From Gemmatimonadota bacterium (GTDB lineage: Bacteria > Gemmatimonadota > Gemmatimonadetes > Gemmatimonadales > Gemmatimonadaceae): a DNA stretch of 17,001 nucleotides. The stretch spans positions 1 through 17,001 of the forward strand of contig JAZJZK010000033.1 of assembly GCA_040389905.1 (NCBI GenBank), given 5' to 3'. The position numbers and the translations under genes were made by a program. Positions 4,157 to 17,001 of the stretch are shown in pieces. Under the pieces are notes generated by a model that saw nothing but the letters and a program-made list of their open reading frames with translations, did no database searches and was not told the DNA's origin. How positions within the stretch are numbered: the first letter of the stretch is position 1; each line of letters opens with the position of its first letter.

Positions 4157-4413
4157 TCCGTGCTGTTTCCGCCGCATCCGGTCACTCCGTTCCTCAACCT
4201 AATGACATACCCGGTTCTTTTTGGTCAATCCAGTGGTTTGGAAATTGCGTCCGTCAACTGACGCTGGAGTCCGTCTGCCAGCGTCCGTGCCTGACATACC
4301 CCTCGGAGCCGGTTCCGTGGGACCGTTTGCCCTGCCGGGCGTTCTGGCAGTCCGCCACTCTCCTGCGGATCGCCAGTCGAACCATTTCAATGTGACGCGG
4401 TGTGAGGCCAAGC

Positions 4414-4812
4414 ATGGCTAGCAACGGCAAGACCGTCCTGCTCGTCGAGGACAACGAGGATAACCGTATCGTCTACTCGACGATTCTTCGTCACTTCGGC
4501 TACGAAGTGAGCGAAGCACTCAACGGAGAGGAAGGCATCGCCAAGGCGCGGGCTGAGCTGCCAGACCTCATTCTCATGGATATTTCGATCCCGATCATCG
4601 ACGGGTGGGAAGCGACGCAGGTGCTCAAGCACGACCCGGCGACGCGGGACATCCCGATCATCGCACTGACGGCACATGCCCTCGCATCGGACCGCGAGAA
4701 GGCGATGGAGGTCGGGTGCGACGGCTATCTCGCCAAGCCCTGCGAGCCACGGGCGGTGGTTGCCGAGGTTCAGCGATTCCTTGGAAAGGATACCCCTGCG
4801 AATGCCGGCTGA
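4414..4812 (+). CDS. Single-domain response regulator (DivK/CheY-like receiver)
   Basis: VLLVEDN acidic pocket, DLILMD phosphoacceptor, ALTAHA, YLAKP; GAGG upstream of ATG 4414. Confidence 0.93.
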   Translation: MASNGKTVLLVEDNEDNRIVYSTILRHFGYEVSEALNGEEGIAKARAELPDLILMDISIPIIDGWEATQVLKHDPATRDIPIIALTAHALASDREKAMEVGCDGYLAKPCEPRAVVAEVQRFLGKDTPANAG

Positions 4813-5875
4813 CGGCCTGGTGAAAAAGACATCTGCCTCGCCAGATGAAAGCGCGTGCGTTCTTCTCGTTGACGATCACGAGGACAACATCGAAGTACTG
4901 CGGGCGCGTCTGGAAGCGTGGGGATACAGGACGGCGTCCGCATCCAACGGCCCCGACGCCATCGCGTATGTCGAGGGCAGCCCCCCGGACCTGATCCTGC
5001 TCGACTGGATGATGCCCGAGATGAGTGGCCTGGACGTCGCCAAGGTCATCAAGGGCAACAAGAGCCTGCCGTTCATCCCGATCATCATGCAGACGGCGCT
5101 CGATTCGACGGAGAACAAGGTCGAGGGCCTCGAGGCGGGCGCCGATGACTACGTCACGAAGCCAATCGATTTTGCCGAGCTCAAGGCGCGCATGCGCTCG
5201 ATGCTCCGCATCAAGCGGCTCCAGGAAGCGCTCGAGGAACGCGAGAAGGAACTCCTCGAGGTGAACGAGCGCCTGCGACACATGTCGCAGACCGACGGGT
5301 TGACGGGTCTCGACAACCGCCGGCACCTCAACGAGCGCATCAACGAGATGTTCGCGCACGCGCAGCGGCTCAACGAGCCCTTCGCCCTCGTCATGTGCGA
5401 CCTGGACAAGTTCAAGAGCGTCAACGATACCTACGGCCATCAGGCCGGTGACGAGGTGCTCAAACAGCTCGCCGTCATCCTGAAGGACGAGGCGCGCGAG
5501 ATCGACCGCGTCGGACGGTATGGCGGCGAGGAATTCATGCTGCTGCTGCCGGGTTCGACCGCCCACGACGGGACGACGTTCGCCGAGAGGATGCGAAAAC
5601 GCATCGCGGCTCATACATTCACGTTTCCCGGGGGGACCCTCACGCGCACGGCCAGCTTTGGCGTCGCAGGTTGGCCCCATCCGGCGATCGACCACTGTGA
5701 AGCGCTCGTGCGGACCGCCGACGATGCGCTTTACGTCGCCAAGGAAACGGGACGCAACCGTGTCGTCGAGTTCGACAGCGACGAGTTCAACGCGCACCAG
5801 GCTGAGCATGGACACGACGCCTCCCGACCCGACTTCAGTGCATCCGAGGACGGAGGAGCAGCAGTTCCCCGGTGA
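4802..5875 (+). CDS. Diguanylate cyclase response regulator (REC-GGDEF, PleD/WspR-like)
   Basis: Receiver (LLVDD, LILLD, TA, KP), coiled-coil linker, DGLTGLDNRR, DLDKFKSVNDTYGH, RxxD I-site (REID) five residues before GGEEF, ADDALYVAKETGRN. Start ATG 4802 (AAGGA upstream) or GTG 4820. Confidence 0.93.
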   Translation: MPADGLVKKTSASPDESACVLLVDDHEDNIEVLRARLEAWGYRTASASNGPDAIAYVEGSPPDLILLDWMMPEMSGLDVAKVIKGNKSLPFIPIIMQTALDSTENKVEGLEAGADDYVTKPIDFAELKARMRSMLRIKRLQEALEEREKELLEVNERLRHMSQTDGLTGLDNRRHLNERINEMFAHAQRLNEPFALVMCDLDKFKSVNDTYGHQAGDEVLKQLAVILKDEAREIDRVGRYGGEEFMLLLPGSTAHDGTTFAERMRKRIAAHTFTFPGGTLTRTASFGVAGWPHPAIDHCEALVRTADDALYVAKETGRNRVVEFDSDEFNAHQAEHGHDASRPDFSASEDGGAAVPR

Positions 5876-6629
5876 CGAGAGCGCGCGCCTCAGGGCGCGC
5901 GTTGCCGAGCTTGTTCGCGAGCGCGATCACCTGCTCGCCACGGTGGATATCCTCCAGGAGGCATCGGCGTCGCTGCACTTCGTCGATGTCCTCCAGACCA
6001 TCGCCCGCAAGCTCGGTGAGACGTTCGGGCTCGACCGGTGCGCGATCTTCCTCTCGGGCGACAAGGACGAGGTCCGCCTGGTCGCGAGCTACGAGGATCC
6101 GACGATTCGCAATCTCGTCGTCGACCTCAATCGGTACCCGGAGCTCAAACGCGCCTTCGAGAGCGGAGAGACCGTCTTTATCCCCGATGCCTCCACGGAG
6201 CCCACCCTTCGCAGCATCAGGACCACGCTCGACAATCGCAACGTCCGTTCGATCATCGTGGTCCCGATCCGTTGGGAGGGCTCGGTGATCGGCGCGATTT
6301 TCCTCCGCACCGAGCGCGACGCGGAGCCGTTCAGCGAAGCCGACGTGCGTTTCTGCCAGTCGGTTGCCTCGCTCACCGCCAAGGCCCTCCGCAACGCGCA
6401 CCGCTTCGAGACACTCCTGCACAGCCAGCAGGCGATGGACGTCGCGCGCCGAAAGGCCGATCTCCAGCGGGTCGCACTCGTTGGCTTCCTGCGCCGCCTG
6501 CTCGACCGGTATGCGCGCAGCGAAGAGCACACGTGGGCCGAGACGCTTCTGCCCAAGGCGGCGGACGAGGAGTTGGAGCGACTCGTGACGGTCGCGATGC
6601 AGGTCCTCGAGGAAGAGGCAAAGGGGTAG
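5808..6629 (+). CDS. GAF-domain protein with flanking helical/coiled-coil segments, no recognisable output domain
   Basis: LQTIARKLGETFGLDRCAIFL...RSIIVVPIRWEGSVIGAIFL...FSEADVRF..SVASLTAKALRNA is typical GAF. Start uncertain; ATG 5808 overlaps the DGC gene by 68 nt. Confidence 0.85.
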   Translation: MDTTPPDPTSVHPRTEEQQFPGDESARLRARVAELVRERDHLLATVDILQEASASLHFVDVLQTIARKLGETFGLDRCAIFLSGDKDEVRLVASYEDPTIRNLVVDLNRYPELKRAFESGETVFIPDASTEPTLRSIRTTLDNRNVRSIIVVPIRWEGSVIGAIFLRTERDAEPFSEADVRFCQSVASLTAKALRNAHRFETLLHSQQAMDVARRKADLQRVALVGFLRRLLDRYARSEEHTWAETLLPKAADEELERLVTVAMQVLEEEAKG

Positions 6630-8648
<2,019 letters not shown>

Positions 8649-8688
8649 CGGCACTGGCGCTCCGGCCGTCCAGGGGAAAGACTACGGA

Positions 8689-9252
8689 ATGGGTGACACG
8701 CGGATGGATCTGACCGGAAGTGGAATGGTGGCGCTCACGCGCGATGCGCTTGCCGCATTGCGGAATGCGCTGATGCGCGATACGGGCTACGCGGCAGCCG
8801 GCTACCTCCAGGAAGCCGGCTACGCCGGCGGTGCGGCGCTGTTCGGTGCGTTCAGCCAATGGCTGGCGGCCCGCGGCGCCGGCGCGCCTTCCGACTTGTC
8901 GATCACCGCGTTTCAGGCGCGCGCCACGGAGTTTTTTCGTGATTGCGGGTGGGGCGCGCTTTCCATCGGCGACCTGCACGACACCGTCGCGACGCTCGAC
9001 TCATCGGATTGGGGCGAAGCAACGCCTGATGCAGGGCTGGAACATCCGGGCTGTCATCTCAGCAGCGGCATGTTCGCGGACTTCTTTGGCCGAGTGGCGG
9101 ATGCTCCATTGGCGGTGATGGAAGTGGAGTGTCGCTCAGCAGGAGCCGAGCGGTGCCGGTTTCTTCTCGGATCGCCAGAAGTGCTGCAGCAGGTCTACGA
9201 AGGAATGGCGCAGGGTGCGGGGTACGAAGAGGCGGTCAGCCTTTCAGCGTAG
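8689..9252 (+). CDS. Stand-alone V4R-domain protein
   Basis: GWG motif, GCH...G...FF, and EVECRSAGAERCRF, the Cys/Glu pattern of V4R domains. ATG 8689 has GGGGAAAG upstream; alternative start 8704. Confidence 0.85.
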   Translation: MGDTRMDLTGSGMVALTRDALAALRNALMRDTGYAAAGYLQEAGYAGGAALFGAFSQWLAARGAGAPSDLSITAFQARATEFFRDCGWGALSIGDLHDTVATLDSSDWGEATPDAGLEHPGCHLSSGMFADFFGRVADAPLAVMEVECRSAGAERCRFLLGSPEVLQQVYEGMAQGAGYEEAVSLSA

Positions 9253-12319: not shown

Positions 12320-12419
12320 CCCAATGCGTCCGTGGCCATGGCGGACACGCGCGTCGCGCTGGTATTTTCGCGCACCAACCCTGACGACTCGCGGGTTGCA
12401 CAACCTTTCGGAGACCGTG

Positions 12420-14255
12420 ATGCATTCATCCGGTGGACCCCGTAACTCCGCGCCTGGAACAGTGTGTCAACTGTTCTTCGAAGCCGTTCGGCGGCACAAC
12501 AAGCCAGACGCCCTGCAATACAAAGTCGACGGCACATATCATCCGATCTCGAGCCAGACGCTCGCTGATCGGGTGCGACACCTTGCGCTGGGCCTGCGCG
12601 AGCTTGGCATGAACGCGGGCGATCGGATCGCCATCTTCTCCGAGAATCGGCCGGAGTGGGCGCTTGCGGACTACGCGTGCCTCACGTCCGCGATGCCGGA
12701 CGTTCCCCTCTACCCCAACCTCCCCCCGGAGCAAGCCGCGTACATCATTCGTGACTCGGGCTCCGTCGCGATTTTTGTCAGCGACGCGACGCAGGCGGCC
12801 AAGATTGCGACGGTCCGCGAGACCTGTCCGACACTGCGCGCCACGATCACCTTCGATGCCGCAAAGCACGCGGGCGCCGACTACACGCTCGCGGAGGTCG
12901 AAGCGCTCGGCGCGGCGGTCGACGATGAGACGCACCGCGCCGAATACGTCGCGCGCGCGAACGCGGTGACGCCGAACGACATCCTCACGCTGATCTATAC
13001 CTCGGGCACGACGGGCGATCCCAAGGGCGTCATGCTCACGCACGACAATCTCTACTCCAACGTGATGGCCTCGGCGACGCAGGTTCCGTTCGAGGGCAAT
13101 GATATCGCGCTCAGCTTCCTGCCGCTCTCGCACATCTTCGAGCGGATGGGCGGACACTACCTGATGTTCCACGTGGGTTGCTCGATCGCCTATGCCGAGT
13201 CGATCGACACGGTGCCAGCCGATCTCCAGCGCGTGCGGCCGACACTCGTGCAGTCCGTACCACGACTGTACGAGAAGATGTACGCGCGCGTCCTCGAGAA
13301 TGCACTCTCCGGTGGCGCGGTCAAGCAGCGCATCTTTTTCTGGGCACGGAAGGTCGCCGAGCAGTGGGCGGACGTGAAGCTCGCCGGTGGCGAACCGCGT
13401 GGGATCCTCGCGATCAAGTACCGCATCGCGCAGAAGCTCGTGTTCTCGAAGCTTCAGACGAGAACGGGGGGCAGGCTCCGCTATTTCGTCTCTGGTGGAG
13501 CGCCGCTCGCGACGGAGATCAACAAGTTCTTCTACGCGGCGGGCCTCGTGATTCTCGAAGGCTACGGATTGACGGAGACGTCTCCCGTCATCGCCGTGAA
13601 CACGCCCGATGCGTTTCGGCTTGGTACCGTTGGCAAGTTGGTGCCGGGCGTCGAAGTGTCGATTGCGAACGATGGGGAAATTCTCACGCGCGGCCCGCAT
13701 GTGATGAAAGGCTATTACAACAAGCCCGAGGCGACGGCCGACGCCATCGATGGCGACGGCTGGTTTCACACGGGCGACATCGGTGAGCTTCGCGACGGCT
13801 ATCTGGCCATCACCGATCGCAAGAAGGACATCATCGTCACGGCGGGCGGAAAGAACATCGCGCCGCAACCGATCGAGAATGCGATCAAGACCAACAAGTT
13901 CGTGAGCCAGGCGGTCGTGATCGGCGATAAGCGGAAGTTTCCGATCGTGCTCATCGTCCCGAACTGGGACCAACTGGACAAGTTCGCGGCGAGCGAAGGT
14001 CTCGAGTCCGTCGACCACACGAAGATGCTGACGACCCCCGCGATTCAGGCGAAGATGGACACGGAGGTGCGCGGCCAGCTCACGGGTCTCGCCAAATTCG
14101 AGATGCCCAAGAAGATCGCCCTGTTAGAGCATGACTTCTCGATCGAACGCGGCGAGTTGACGCCAACGCTCAAGGTCAAGCGCCGTGTGATCGACAAGAC
14201 GTACAAGTCCGTGATCGATGCGTTGTATGCCGATGAGCCCGACGGACCTATGTAA
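12420..14255 (+). CDS. fadD: Long-chain fatty acid--CoA ligase (FadD15/ACSL-like AMP-dependent synthetase)
   Basis: P-loop IYTSGTTGDPKGVMLTH, LPLSHIFER, SGGAPL, EGYGLTET, WFHTGDIG, DRKKDIIVTAGGKNIAP, ELTPTLKVKR; GGAG 6 nt upstream of ATG 12420. Confidence 0.92.
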   Translation: MHSSGGPRNSAPGTVCQLFFEAVRRHNKPDALQYKVDGTYHPISSQTLADRVRHLALGLRELGMNAGDRIAIFSENRPEWALADYACLTSAMPDVPLYPNLPPEQAAYIIRDSGSVAIFVSDATQAAKIATVRETCPTLRATITFDAAKHAGADYTLAEVEALGAAVDDETHRAEYVARANAVTPNDILTLIYTSGTTGDPKGVMLTHDNLYSNVMASATQVPFEGNDIALSFLPLSHIFERMGGHYLMFHVGCSIAYAESIDTVPADLQRVRPTLVQSVPRLYEKMYARVLENALSGGAVKQRIFFWARKVAEQWADVKLAGGEPRGILAIKYRIAQKLVFSKLQTRTGGRLRYFVSGGAPLATEINKFFYAAGLVILEGYGLTETSPVIAVNTPDAFRLGTVGKLVPGVEVSIANDGEILTRGPHVMKGYYNKPEATADAIDGDGWFHTGDIGELRDGYLAITDRKKDIIVTAGGKNIAPQPIENAIKTNKFVSQAVVIGDKRKFPIVLIVPNWDQLDKFAASEGLESVDHTKMLTTPAIQAKMDTEVRGQLTGLAKFEMPKKIALLEHDFSIERGELTPTLKVKRRVIDKTYKSVIDALYADEPDGPM

Positions 14256-14272: not shown

Positions 14273-14377
14273 TACGAAATACGTAATACGTAGTTCGCAA
14301 TACGTAGTTCGTAATACGTACTTCGTAATACGTAGTTCGCAATACGTAGTTCGTAATACGTAGTTCGTAGTACGTAT
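14273..14377. repeat. Tandem heptamer array (15 x 7 bp) with 14-bp and 42-bp higher-order periods
   Basis: TACGAAA TACGTAA then alternating TACGTAG / TTCG(T/C)AA units to TACGTAT; fills most of the gap between convergent fadD and Trm112-like genes. Confidence 0.95.
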
Positions 14378-14381
14378 CTAG

Positions 14382-15020
14382 TTAACCTTGAGCCCGTCTC
14401 ACGTGCAGCGATATCAGCGGCGATGGGTCAGGCTCTCGCTCCGCAACCCACATCGATTCGTCGCGCGCAAGCTCCCGTACTCCCGGCGGCAGTGAAACGC
14501 CCGCAGGCCCGATCACTCGCCCGCCCGTTTTGGTCATCCGCACCGCCGCGGCGATGCGTGCCTCCAAGCCGCTGTCGATCGCTGTCGCGCGCGCCGATCC
14601 CATCGCGAGAGGGATCGCCTCTCCCTCGGTTCTGATCACCGAGATCCCCGGCGAGCCGGTAACATCTTCGGGAGGATCCACAAGCAACAGGGGCAACTCC
14701 ACGATACCGGCCAACGCGACGGCGTGCCGGCCCCAGTCGCCGAGGAGCACCGCGAAGCCGCGGCTGTCGGCAAGATCGAGAAGCGCGGCAATGCGCATCG
14801 CCAACTCCGGATCGGCCTGCCCAACGGCTGGCGCGACGTAAATCGCGTCTCGCCGAAAATCGACGACGCCGTCGCGAATTGGATACTCCGCCTGACATAC
14901 CGGGCACCCGAGCGTCCCGATCACAATGTGCCGAGCTTCGGTCCGCACTGCCGACGCGACAAGCCAGCTCTCTTCGTGCGAAACGGGACAGCGGAGTGCG
15001 TCTACGAGCTCGATGAACAT
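14382..15020 (-). CDS. Hypothetical protein with N-terminal Trm112-like zinc-ribbon domain and possible degenerate methyltransferase-like fold
   Basis: LVDALRCP...GTLGCPVCQAEYPIRDGVVDF matches the Trm112/YcaR pattern; later IPLAMGS and RMTKTGGRVI resemble class I MTase segments but there is no clear GxGxG. Starts 8 nt after the SDR stop. Confidence 0.75.
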   Translation of the reverse strand: MFIELVDALRCPVSHEESWLVASAVRTEARHIVIGTLGCPVCQAEYPIRDGVVDFRRDAIYVAPAVGQADPELAMRIAALLDLADSRGFAVLLGDWGRHAVALAGIVELPLLLVDPPEDVTGSPGISVIRTEGEAIPLAMGSARATAIDSGLEARIAAAVRMTKTGGRVIGPAGVSLPPGVRELARDESMWVAEREPDPSPLISLHVRRAQG

Positions 15021-15028
15021 GCCGGTAG

Positions 15029-15754
15029 TCAGCTCTTCGAAAGCCGCAATTCGTCGACATTCAAGTCGGCTGGCGCCGTAAGGACGTAGTGCACGGCGTC
15101 CGCGACCGCTCCGGGTGTCAGCATGTCTTTCCTCGGCGTAAAACCCGGTTGGCGATCCGGATCGATGGAATCCCAGAGCGGCGTATCCACCGGGCCCGGG
15201 GAAACCAGACTGACCCGCACGCCCGTTCCGCGCAGCTCGGCACGAAGGACTTCATGGAGTGCACGCAGTCCGTGTTTGCTCGCCGCGTACGCGCCATTGC
15301 CGGGATAGACGCTCCGATCGGCAATCGAGCCGATCGTGACGATGTGTCCGGCGCCGTTGCTGCGAAGCCCCGGCAGGAGCGCACGAATCGCGGCGAACGG
15401 CGCCGTCAGGTTCACGGTCAACGTGTCACGGAATGCATCGACTGATGTCTCGTGCGCCGGCGCGATGGAGAAGCCGCCGGCGTTGTTCACGATGATGTCC
15501 GGCGACCCACCGATCTGGGTGCGCAATTGGTCGATCGCGCGGGTCAGGGTATCGGTGTCGCGCAGATCGCACGCGAGGCCGACGGCGCCACCTCCAAGTT
15601 CCTTCGCAAGCGAGGCCAGCGCCGCCTTGTCGCGCGCGAGGAGCACGACTCGCGCGCCTGCGCCCGAGACTCTCCGAGCGATCGCGGCGCCGATGCCGCG
15701 CGACGCACCCGTGATGAGCGCAATACGGCCGGTGAGCGGCTTCGGGGTCATCAT
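15029..15754 (-). CDS. Classical SDR oxidoreductase, probably NADPH-dependent; candidate sepiapterin/pterin reductase by context
   Basis: TGASRGIG, Arg after beta2 (LARD), NNAG, catalytic Ser (GSIA) and YAASK; ATGA overlap with the folE stop. Confidence 0.9.
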
Positions 15755-16356
15755 CGTTGCGTGTACGCCAGGCTGAGGAATTCGTCTCGCGTCTTGGCAT
15801 CGTCACGAAAAACGCCGCGAAGCGCGGAGGTAATCGTGCGGGAGTTTTGCTTCTCCACGCCGCGCATCATCATGCACATGTGGAATGCCTCGATCACCAC
15901 ACCGACGCCGCGTGGTTCCAGCACCTCCTCGATGGCCTTGGCGACCTGTTCGGTGAGGCGTTCCTGCACCTGCAGACGCCTGGCGAACATGTCGACGATG
16001 CGCGGCAACTTCGAGAGCCCGACGATGCGCGTGCTGGGGATGTATGCGACGTGCGCTTTTCCGTAAAACGGCAGCATGTGGTGCTCGCACAGCGAGTAGA
16101 CCTCGATGTCCCGCACCATGACCATGTTCTCGTGCTCTTCGTCGAACAGCGCGTTGCCCACCACGTCCGCGAGCGTCTGCGAATAGCCGCGCGTGAGGAA
16201 CTGCATTGCCTTCGCGACGCGTTCCGGTGTGCGCTGGAGGCCATCGCGCTCCACATCCTCGCCGAGGAGCTCGAGTTGATTGCGGACAAGGTCGGCGTAT
16301 TGGCCAACATCCTCGCCGGCGAGTGGATGGGGCCTTGGACGCTCTGTACTATTCAC
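15751..16356 (-). CDS. folE: GTP cyclohydrolase I (type IA)
   Basis: [54 protein letters not shown] start at 16356 overlaps the PTPS stop. Confidence 0.96.
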
Positions 16357-16762
16357 CGGTGTACTCGACGTAGTTGTTTGGCGTCTCCCAGAGGACGAGA
16401 CGCACGAGATTGCGCGGCCGGATGGCTGGCTCGAGCTCGCGCCAGATGGCAACGATGATGTTCTCGGACGTGGGAATCGTTCCCCGCATGAATGCCACGT
16501 CGAGATTCAGGTTCTTGTGGTCGATCTTGTCCACGACGCGCTCCATGACGATCTGCTTCAGCAGGCCGAGGTCCAACACATAGCCGGTGCGTTCGTCGAT
16601 TTCGCCACGCACGGAGACGTCGAGCGTGTAGTTGTGGCCGTGCCCGTTCGGGTTATTGCACTTGCCGAACACGCGATTGTTCTCCTCGTCGGAGAACGCC
16701 GGATTGTGGACGCGGTGCGCCGCATTGAACATCAGGCGGCGCGTGACCGTTACATGAGGCAT
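16349..16762 (-). CDS. 6-pyruvoyl-tetrahydropterin synthase, animal-like PTPS-II type (COG0720)
   Basis: [28 protein letters not shown] (CX5HGH), [18 protein letters not shown]. Confidence 0.9.
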
Positions 16763-16837: not shown

Positions 16838-16863
16838 CGCGAGCCTCGCGCCACTTGGAGCGG

Positions 16864-16902
16864 AAAAAAGACGCGGGCTCCGCCGTGACGCGCGGAGCCC
16901 GC
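16864..16902 (-). terminator. Intrinsic (Rho-independent) terminator
   Basis: Perfect 11-bp GC stem GCGGGCTCCGC/GCGGAGCCCGC with an 8-nt loop, followed on the - strand by GTCTTTTTT. Confidence 0.85.
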
Positions 16903-17001
16903 AAGAACTGGAACGGAGAGGGTTTTTTGAAGCCCAGTCGAAATAATGAGGCTCTCACCACACCTTCCGGCTTCCCCCGCACTGAGGGCATGCCGTCAGT
17001 A

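Follow-up and report, generated by a model that had tools for sequence, protein, structure and literature searches.

Does a bacterial gene cluster that pairs an animal-like pyruvoyl-tetrahydropterin synthase (PTPS) with GTP cyclohydrolase I make biopterin, serve queuosine, or do both? The question is raised by a 17,001-nucleotide contig of a Gemmatimonadota bacterium of the Gemmatimonadaceae (GenBank assembly GCA_040389905.1, contig JAZJZK010000033.1), here called the window, which is the entire contig C33 of the source genome (G000; assembly 85% complete). Four minus-strand genes at its end encode a PTPS of family COG0720, FolE, a short-chain dehydrogenase/reductase (SDR) and a protein that we call gene 4 (Table 1). 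An initial annotation had read them as a candidate complete, animal-type route dedicated to tetrahydrobiopterin (BH4), likely to be mis-annotated as queD. We find this reading of a dedicated four-gene BH4 operon to be partly supported. Across the family the PTPS is distributed according to the need for queuosine, and we hold it somewhat more probable than its contrary that this PTPS-II-motif enzyme fills the QueD step, as 6-carboxy-tetrahydropterin (CPH4) synthase, in about half of the Gemmatimonadaceae, without the QueD motif.

The sequence of the PTPS agrees with what had been claimed for it. The motif CNNPNGHGH (CX5HGH), which the COG0720 motif rule assigns to PTPS-II (PMC5041015, excerpt), is present and recurs in 136/137 orthologues, and H16, C35, H41, H43, D81, H82, E100 and E126 are kept in 136–139 of 139 orthologue matches. 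The likeness to mammalian PTS also held: the best PDB matches were the human (3i2b) and rat (1b66) enzymes, with 134.8 bits and with the CX5HGH motif, zinc ligands and active-site residues in common, against only 35–36 bits for E. coli QueD. In animals, the PTS reaction ends at pyruvoyl-tetrahydropterin (PTP). A tree of 51 COG0720 proteins from the loci examined, built without an animal sequence, grouped the PTPS with folE-linked proteins of other phyla and separate from QueD, so that both motif and phylogeny place it with PTPS-II and outside the QueD clade; its closest named relatives are from Gemmatimonadaceae. A search for CX5HGH enzymes in phage or plasmid deazaguanine clusters returned only distant matches (28–35%, mostly annotated QueD), none of them in viral contigs.

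The gene inventory of the source genome contains a gap that this enzyme could fill. G000 has queC-queE and queA-tgt, and no canonical QueD was found in it, its only two COG0720 genes, the operon PTPS and a paralog linked to molybdenum cofactor (Moco) genes, both having CX5HGH. We followed these genes through a first draw of 41 genomes, which is the more fragmentary, and through a family draw of 71, composed of 70 genomes drawn at completeness of at least 93% and G000. In a genus draw, QueC was present in 24/25 genomes, QueF in 18/25 and canonical QueD in 1/25. Of the 71 family genomes, 65 had QueC, 62 had QueF (interrupted by a stop in one), 59 carried the operon PTPS and 66 carried the Moco-linked paralog. 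Canonical QueD occurred in 30/71, that is, 29 above the cut-off and G097, read as CX3HGH beside queE; 19 weak COG0720 matches, with scores below the QueD and CExxHGH rows, are unlisted. This left 35 genomes with QueC and without QueD (35/65 of those bearing queC), every one of which retains the operon PTPS. QueF is present in 31 of the 35, and 30, among them assemblies of 4, 7 and 10 contigs, lack the CExxHGH type as well. The 12 PTPS-less genomes either have QueD (7) or lack QueC (5). Among the six genomes without QueC the operon PTPS was lost in five, and the sole keeper, G063 (95% complete), has an intact QueF. In G096 (98% complete; QueC, QueE and QueF present) and in G078 the operon PTPS is the sole COG0720 gene found. 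Among 30 queC loci read, one has a QueD after queE, and the remaining 29 show no QueD-like substitute before the gene that follows. Three genomes in these counts are unpublished (G012 in the genus counts and alignments, G047 among the 12 PTPS-less and the six QueC-less, G066 among the 35); without them the pattern is 34/34, with 11 losses.

The association between the PTPS and queuosine need gave a Fisher p of 1.6e-4 over the 71 genomes, a value that overstates it because kin are not independent. In a tree of operon-region proteins, from which G054 was dropped for too little sequence and G095 is absent for want of a locus, PTPS losses fall in up to seven places, none of which touches a genome with QueC and without QueD, and only 10 of 20000 random clade sets of equal sizes avoid all such genomes. 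A basal clade of 11 genomes has three PTPS carriers (G058, G075 and G087), which are exactly its three members with QueC and without QueD and which hold the gene in its ancestral position. The claim of an operon dedicated to BH4 that would merely be mistaken for queD is not supported by these results: the distribution follows queuosine need and not the BH4 user PhhA, and queC-queE stand without a separate queD.

Two further COG0720 types were observed besides the operon enzyme and QueD. The Moco-linked paralog, termed b, lies at G000:C40:5786-6205 (L002:1489-1905) beside fdhE-like, mobA and moeA genes and is present in nearly all relatives (66/71). The CExxHGH type occurs in 16/71 genomes (L230-L238, L069), in several beside genes resembling methanopterin C1 genes (cyclohydrolase, RimK-like ligases) and in others beside a PCD-like gene (PCD, pterin-4a-carbinolamine dehydratase).

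How could a PTPS-II take the place of QueD? According to the part of PMC9894224 available to us, the QueD reaction passes through a sepiapterin-like intermediate from which acetaldehyde is then removed, so that the PTPS-II reaction would be the first half of the QueD reaction and dual chemistry is plausible; QueD is also described there as tolerating CX4 spacing. In the scheme that we propose, FolE would make dihydroneopterin triphosphate, which the operon PTPS would convert into CPH4 for QueE and QueC, replacing the missing QueD; the PTPS would also release PTP, as its motif predicts, and the SDR would reduce PTP to a biopterin-type pterin. Such a biopterin-type branch through the SDR probably runs alongside the QueD role. 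For the joint reading, in which one CX5HGH enzyme both supplies CPH4 in place of QueD and releases PTP for the SDR branch, we estimate a little less than an even chance, and tentatively prefer it. We infer both PTPS products, the SDR substrate and the use made of the final pterin.

With QueD/PTPS-I (E. coli, 4ntm) and QueD2 (CX4HGH, 7v0f) the operon PTPS has fold family, substrate and first half-reaction in common, and in 35 genomes it occupies the same slot of the gene inventory; it differs from QueD in its CX5 spacing, its clade and its residues. Tyr61 and Asp64 of the enzyme occupy positions that hold Met and Asn in rat PTS, from which it differs there, and Trp and Asp in E. coli QueD. We take QueD His25, Asp54 and Trp51 to have functional roles, and the His that E. 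coli QueD carries two residues before the Cys presumably acts in the second half-reaction.

Several observations weigh against a QueD role. The operon PTPS fails every QueD sequence test: it lacks the motif CX3HGH (or CX4HGH of QueD2), it scores 64.4 bits on the QueD model TIGR03367 against a cut-off of 89.25, and it has Gly33 (136/139) in place of the His two residues before the Cys. Unlike QueD it is not clustered with queC or queE; no que gene adjoins the operon in 80 loci, and the queC-queE pair of G000 sits on another contig. QueF was not found in the 85%-complete G000. Five first-draw genomes with QueC and without QueD yielded no operon PTPS, four of which (G001, G002, G009 and G016) are fragmented and 58–89% complete and the fifth, G031, is 99% complete and has a CExxHGH paralog. 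Loss of the PTPS tracks that CExxHGH paralog even more strongly (10/16 versus 2/55), and 23 of the 30 genomes with QueD still keep the operon PTPS. In seven sister-family genomes and in G037, PTPS and SDR are present although QueC is not, which means that the enzyme has another use there. Finally, the tree that places the losses derives from the operon's own proteins and has weak basal nodes, so the losses may be fewer than seven.

The second half of the scheme depends on the SDR, which has a sequence that makes it a fair candidate for a sepiapterin reductase of the Chlorobium type. It is a classical SDR with an intact Ser-Tyr-Lys triad (S143, Y156, K160) and NADPH-type R19 and R41; R41, D146, Y156, K160 and W194 are found in 133/133 orthologue matches, and F95 and S143 in 129/133. 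The SDR shares 40% identity with a folE-linked SDR from Rhodothermales, for which the top PDB match is 2bd0, the sepiapterin reductase of Chlorobium tepidum, and in a quick tree, into which one long-branch paralog intrudes, its family is sister to the Rhodothermales folE-linked clade (SH-aLRT 87). Aligned via the Rhodothermales SDR, Trp194 maps to Trp196 of the Chlorobium enzyme, a residue reported as required for substrate binding in the accessible part of PMC7520308; the equivalent Trp is absent from all 12 other SDRs of G000. The best family model is PRK07454 (178 versus a cut-off of 234), which likewise ranks first for two Rhodothermales SDRs and one Ignavibacteria SDR, and second for another. 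Set directly against 2bd0, the SDR shows 31% identity and Z 30.5 with a root-mean-square deviation of 1.9 over 224 residues, a Z little different from the values of many unrelated SDRs (best 32.3), and fold searches gave no separation of sepiapterin reductase from other SDRs. Unlike 2bd0, it has an extra loop after the Trp and an invariant Asp146, and its F95, like the Phe of the Rhodothermales SDR, lies two positions off Phe99 when aligned without gaps. Searching with the Rhodothermales SDR brought up no Chlorobi proteins or named reductases among the 120 matches listed.

Other findings count against the SDR branch. 2bd0 was outside the top 60 PDB matches for the whole SDR and ranked 43 by fold; the SDR ends before the C-terminal tail that is kept by 2bd0 and by the Rhodothermales and Ignavibacteria SDRs; in five Ignavibacteria-type loci the gene that follows folE encodes an SDR of another class, which has no such Trp; and the SDR persists next to folE in 11/12 PTPS-less genomes, in six of which paralog b is without its Cys, and is missing at the locus in four PTPS carriers (G048, G054, G066 and G087). 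Of the initial proposal, the SDR as a pterin side-chain reductase thus survives as a fair candidate of the Chlorobium type. The label 'animal-type' does not, as only the PTPS is animal-like and no animal sepiapterin reductase, the type that anchors the pterin through a C-terminal Asp257, is among the best 60 PDB matches of the SDR. A FolM-type role was rejected: TGX3RXG, the motif of FolM/PruA/PTR1 pteridine reductases (PMC13259868, excerpt), is absent from the SDR, which has TGASRGIG, and a separate candidate lies on contig C34. This pteridine-reductase-like SDR with TGX3RXG (G000:C34:68086-68820; L229:3586-4320, minus strand) has PRK09135 as its best model (244 versus a cut-off of 288) and is, by its sequence, likely a dihydrofolate or dihydropterin reductase; no FolA was found in G000.

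What would use the pterin? As the initial annotation had stated, there is no BH4 consumer in the window; PhhA and PCD are encoded elsewhere in G000, PhhA within what reads from the sequences as a phenylacetate-type gene cluster. PhhA is patchy (13/41 in the first draw, 31/71 in the family draw) and does not track the operon PTPS, being present in 24/59 carriers and 7/12 non-carriers. We therefore rejected PhhA as the main user of the operon product across the family; it can be a user in G000. NOS was not found in G000, and a search for proteins with histidine boxes like those of desaturases or alkylglycerol monooxygenase, which was strictly filtered and a weak test, gave nothing. A FolB bypass was likewise rejected, FolB-FolK being present in G000 and FolB in 5/5 sister-family genomes tested. 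Of the seven sister-family genomes that keep PTPS and SDR without QueC, six lack PhhA. Biopterin is rare in bacteria according to the part consulted of a 2026 review (PMC13259868). In one Bacteroidota-titled locus, PTPS-folE-SDR is preceded at a distance of ~1.2 kb by a PhhA-like gene (L185:123-818); no other of the 80 loci shows such a link.

Conservation of gene order, which had been proposed as a check, was assessed in a genome scan covering 9/64 parts; it gave 80 operon loci, 59 Gemmatimonadota-like, one of which is titled Acidimicrobiales yet is 69% identical, and 21 from Ignavibacteriota, Rhodothermota and Bacteroidota. All 15 extended genus loci have the four genes in order. In the Gemmatimonadota-like loci with room, folE is next to PTPS in 49/55, the SDR then follows in 48/49, and gene 4 is present in 44/46, immediately after the SDR in 38. 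In the 21 other loci folE follows PTPS in 18 and an SDR comes directly after folE in 14, so PTPS-folE-SDR is conserved in the family as well as beyond the phylum. The association of PTPS-II with folE and a reductase has been described before (PMC5041015, in part), and folE is present in 13% of PTPS-II neighbourhoods (PMC5445326, excerpt); a cluster of known type that recurs in other phyla is therefore not the new part. The gene fadD adjoins gene 4 in 24/27 operon loci of relatives (L038-L064), and as fadD and a 6S-like RNA are equally well conserved, synteny alone is no proof of one pathway.

Gene 4 is probably a conserved neighbour and not a pathway enzyme. Its Trm112 match falls below the Pfam cut-off (20.4 versus 22 bits), and its predicted structure (pLDDT 92.6) combines an N-terminal zinc knuckle with a class I methyltransferase fold; the best Foldseek match is RlmA(I), and all matches listed are S-adenosylmethionine (SAM)-fold enzymes. 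The zinc-type residues C11, H15, C39 and C42 are kept in 130–132 of 132 orthologue matches. Motif I of class I methyltransferases comprises an acidic residue and a GxG loop; in gene 4 it is eroded, L92 replacing the acid, the GxG loop being absent and only G94 conserved. Compared with RlmA(I)-like and Trm112-fused class I methyltransferases, gene 4 shares the zinc knuckle and the seven-stranded SAM-type fold but is ~100 residues shorter than the Acidobacteriota-type matches and 11–20% identical to solved structures. Its Atlas clusters are from Gemmatimonadota and without an assigned name. The claim that four genes form one pathway was not sustained: gene 4 is split from the SDR by a 1.6–2.1-kb insert in 11/12 sister-family loci (both inserts tested encode an M23 peptidase), is inverted at L162 and L219, is retained where PTPS or SDR has gone, and was not detected next to the cluster in any of 18 non-Gemmatimonadota loci (0/18).

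An alternative that we regard as possible but doubtful is that FolE, the PTPS-II and a Chlorobium-type sepiapterin reductase make a biopterin-type pterin only, the QueD gap being filled by the Moco-linked paralog or by an enzyme outside COG0720. The motif and animal-like sequence of the PTPS, its known cluster type (PMC5041015, in part) with synteny across phyla, the presence of PhhA and PCD in G000 and the sister-family operons without QueC are all consistent with this account, and paralog b, which keeps CX5HGH in 20/20 genus sequences read, could do or share the QueD job, a point that also weighs on the QueD role of the operon enzyme. However, neither G096 nor G078 yielded paralog b, whose catalytic Cys is lost in several lineages (14/44 sequences); the Cys is lacking in 6/10 PTPS-less genomes and kept in the genus, so that paralog b may take part in the QueD job too. 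A pathway to biopterin alone is also hard to reconcile with an operon PTPS that, unlike a PTPS-II tied to a BH4 user, is unlinked to PhhA, and with an SDR that outlives the PTPS, and it leaves unexplained why the losses spare all 35 genomes with QueC and without QueD.

The persistence of the SDR beside folE in PTPS-less genomes, and its absence at the locus in four carriers, would be expected if instead the operon PTPS served queuosine only in this family and the SDR acted on another pterin from the FolE product, on a salvaged pterin or on an unrelated carbonyl, within a conserved stretch of chromosome; the equal synteny of fadD, gene 4 and the 6S-like RNA and the different, Trp-less SDR class of the five Ignavibacteria-type loci agree with this. 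We judge it unlikely, as Trp194 is invariant and also occurs in the Chlorobium enzyme and in the SDRs linked to folE in Rhodothermales and Ignavibacteria, the SDR family is sister to the Rhodothermales clade, and G000 has a separate pteridine-reductase-like SDR for ring reduction. Least probable, to a degree that we would hardly expect it, is that gene 4 is an active methyltransferase on the pterin, giving a methylated end product of one four-gene pathway. Its place directly after the SDR in 38/46 Gemmatimonadota loci with room, its class I fold and the O-methylated monapterin known from Agrobacterium (PMC13259868, excerpt) speak for such an activity, and its eroded motif I and its separation, inversion, stranding or absence in relatives and in the 18 loci outside the phylum speak against it. 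We thus retain, tentatively, the joint reading of a CX5HGH enzyme with both a QueD role and an SDR branch.

The layout of the operon is as had been described, all four minus-strand open reading frames being present and closely joined. The overlap of folE and SDR is 4 nt (ATGA) and the gap from SDR to gene 4 is 8 nt, and the 8-nt overlap of PTPS and folE rests on an inferred GTG start of folE. The folE frame continues through this start in 15/15 genus loci, with GTG there in 12 and an in-frame ATG 15 nt further upstream in the other three. FolE gave a single tblastn match in the assembly and is the sole FolE found; FolE2 (PF02649) was not found in G000; in all, the search drew a blank in five genomes, four of them without folE at the operon locus. 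In G091, G107, G052, G074 and ~10 other family genomes (for example, L280, L251, L274 and L272) folE is gone from the locus and PTPS joins the SDR directly; the four named genomes are those in which the search for FolE2 was negative.

Table 1. Features of the operon and its flanks (positions in the window)
Feature	Position	Strand	Description
PTPS (COG0720 enzyme, paralog 'a')	16349..16762	-	137 aa; PF01242 118 bits; CX5HGH; predicted pyruvoyl-tetrahydropterin synthase, likely QueD substitute
FolE (GTP cyclohydrolase I)	15751..16356	-	201 aa from GTG; TIGR00063 265.6 bits versus cut-off 181.6
SDR	15029..15754	-	241 aa; NADPH-type classical SDR; candidate Chlorobium-type sepiapterin reductase
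Gene 4	14382..15020	-	212 aa; Trm112-like zinc knuckle and degenerate class I methyltransferase fold
6S-like non-coding RNA, 3' part	16862..17001, continuing into G000:C24:1-260	-	terminator hairpin 16903-16872; upstream of operon
Long-chain acyl-CoA ligase, fadD-like	12324..14255	+	PF00501; convergent with gene 4

Contigs C24 and C33 share a 55-base identical overlap at the window end, across which a conserved RNA runs that is, from its sequence, likely a divergent 6S RNA: its orthologues score 36.3 and 34.6 bits on Rfam RF00013, below the gathering score of 46.4. The RNA is highly conserved in alignment, immediately precedes the operon in most relatives and carries a promoter-like site (TTGACC-17-TAGATT) and a terminator; no sigma-70-like site was found between it and PTPS. 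A 14-bp tandem repeat of 6.8 copies (window 14282-14376) lies where gene 4 and fadD converge, between their stop codons, and occurs nowhere else in the genome. Further away, at window 4402-9252, response regulator, diguanylate-cyclase-like, GAF-like and V4R-like proteins, families read by eye from sequence, flank an NAD-dependent DNA ligase in a tight run.

The cluster itself is of a known kind, and provisionally we found no report of it in Gemmatimonadota, nor of a CX5HGH enzyme in the place of QueD. A survey that used the InterPro family to score QueD (PMC11130926, excerpt) could have hidden a pathway hole of this kind. The useful part of the finding is this hole: databases assign COG0720 proteins to queuosine, biopterin or folate by cysteine spacing, and of the 65 genomes with queC, 35 are without the queuosine type, each of which keeps the biopterin type. 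PTPS-II makes up 21% of the COG0720 family (PMC9894224, in part), a group far larger than the ~50 genomes that have been predicted to make BH4 (PMC5041015, in part). If the proposed role is true, part of this large bacterial PTPS-II group may serve queuosine, the motif rule for COG0720 annotation is broken, and the puzzle of bacterial PTPS-II genes without a BH4 user would be partly answered. If CPH4 is indeed made by the operon enzyme, the motif rule would have a large exception and the second half-reaction of QueD would gain another structural solution.

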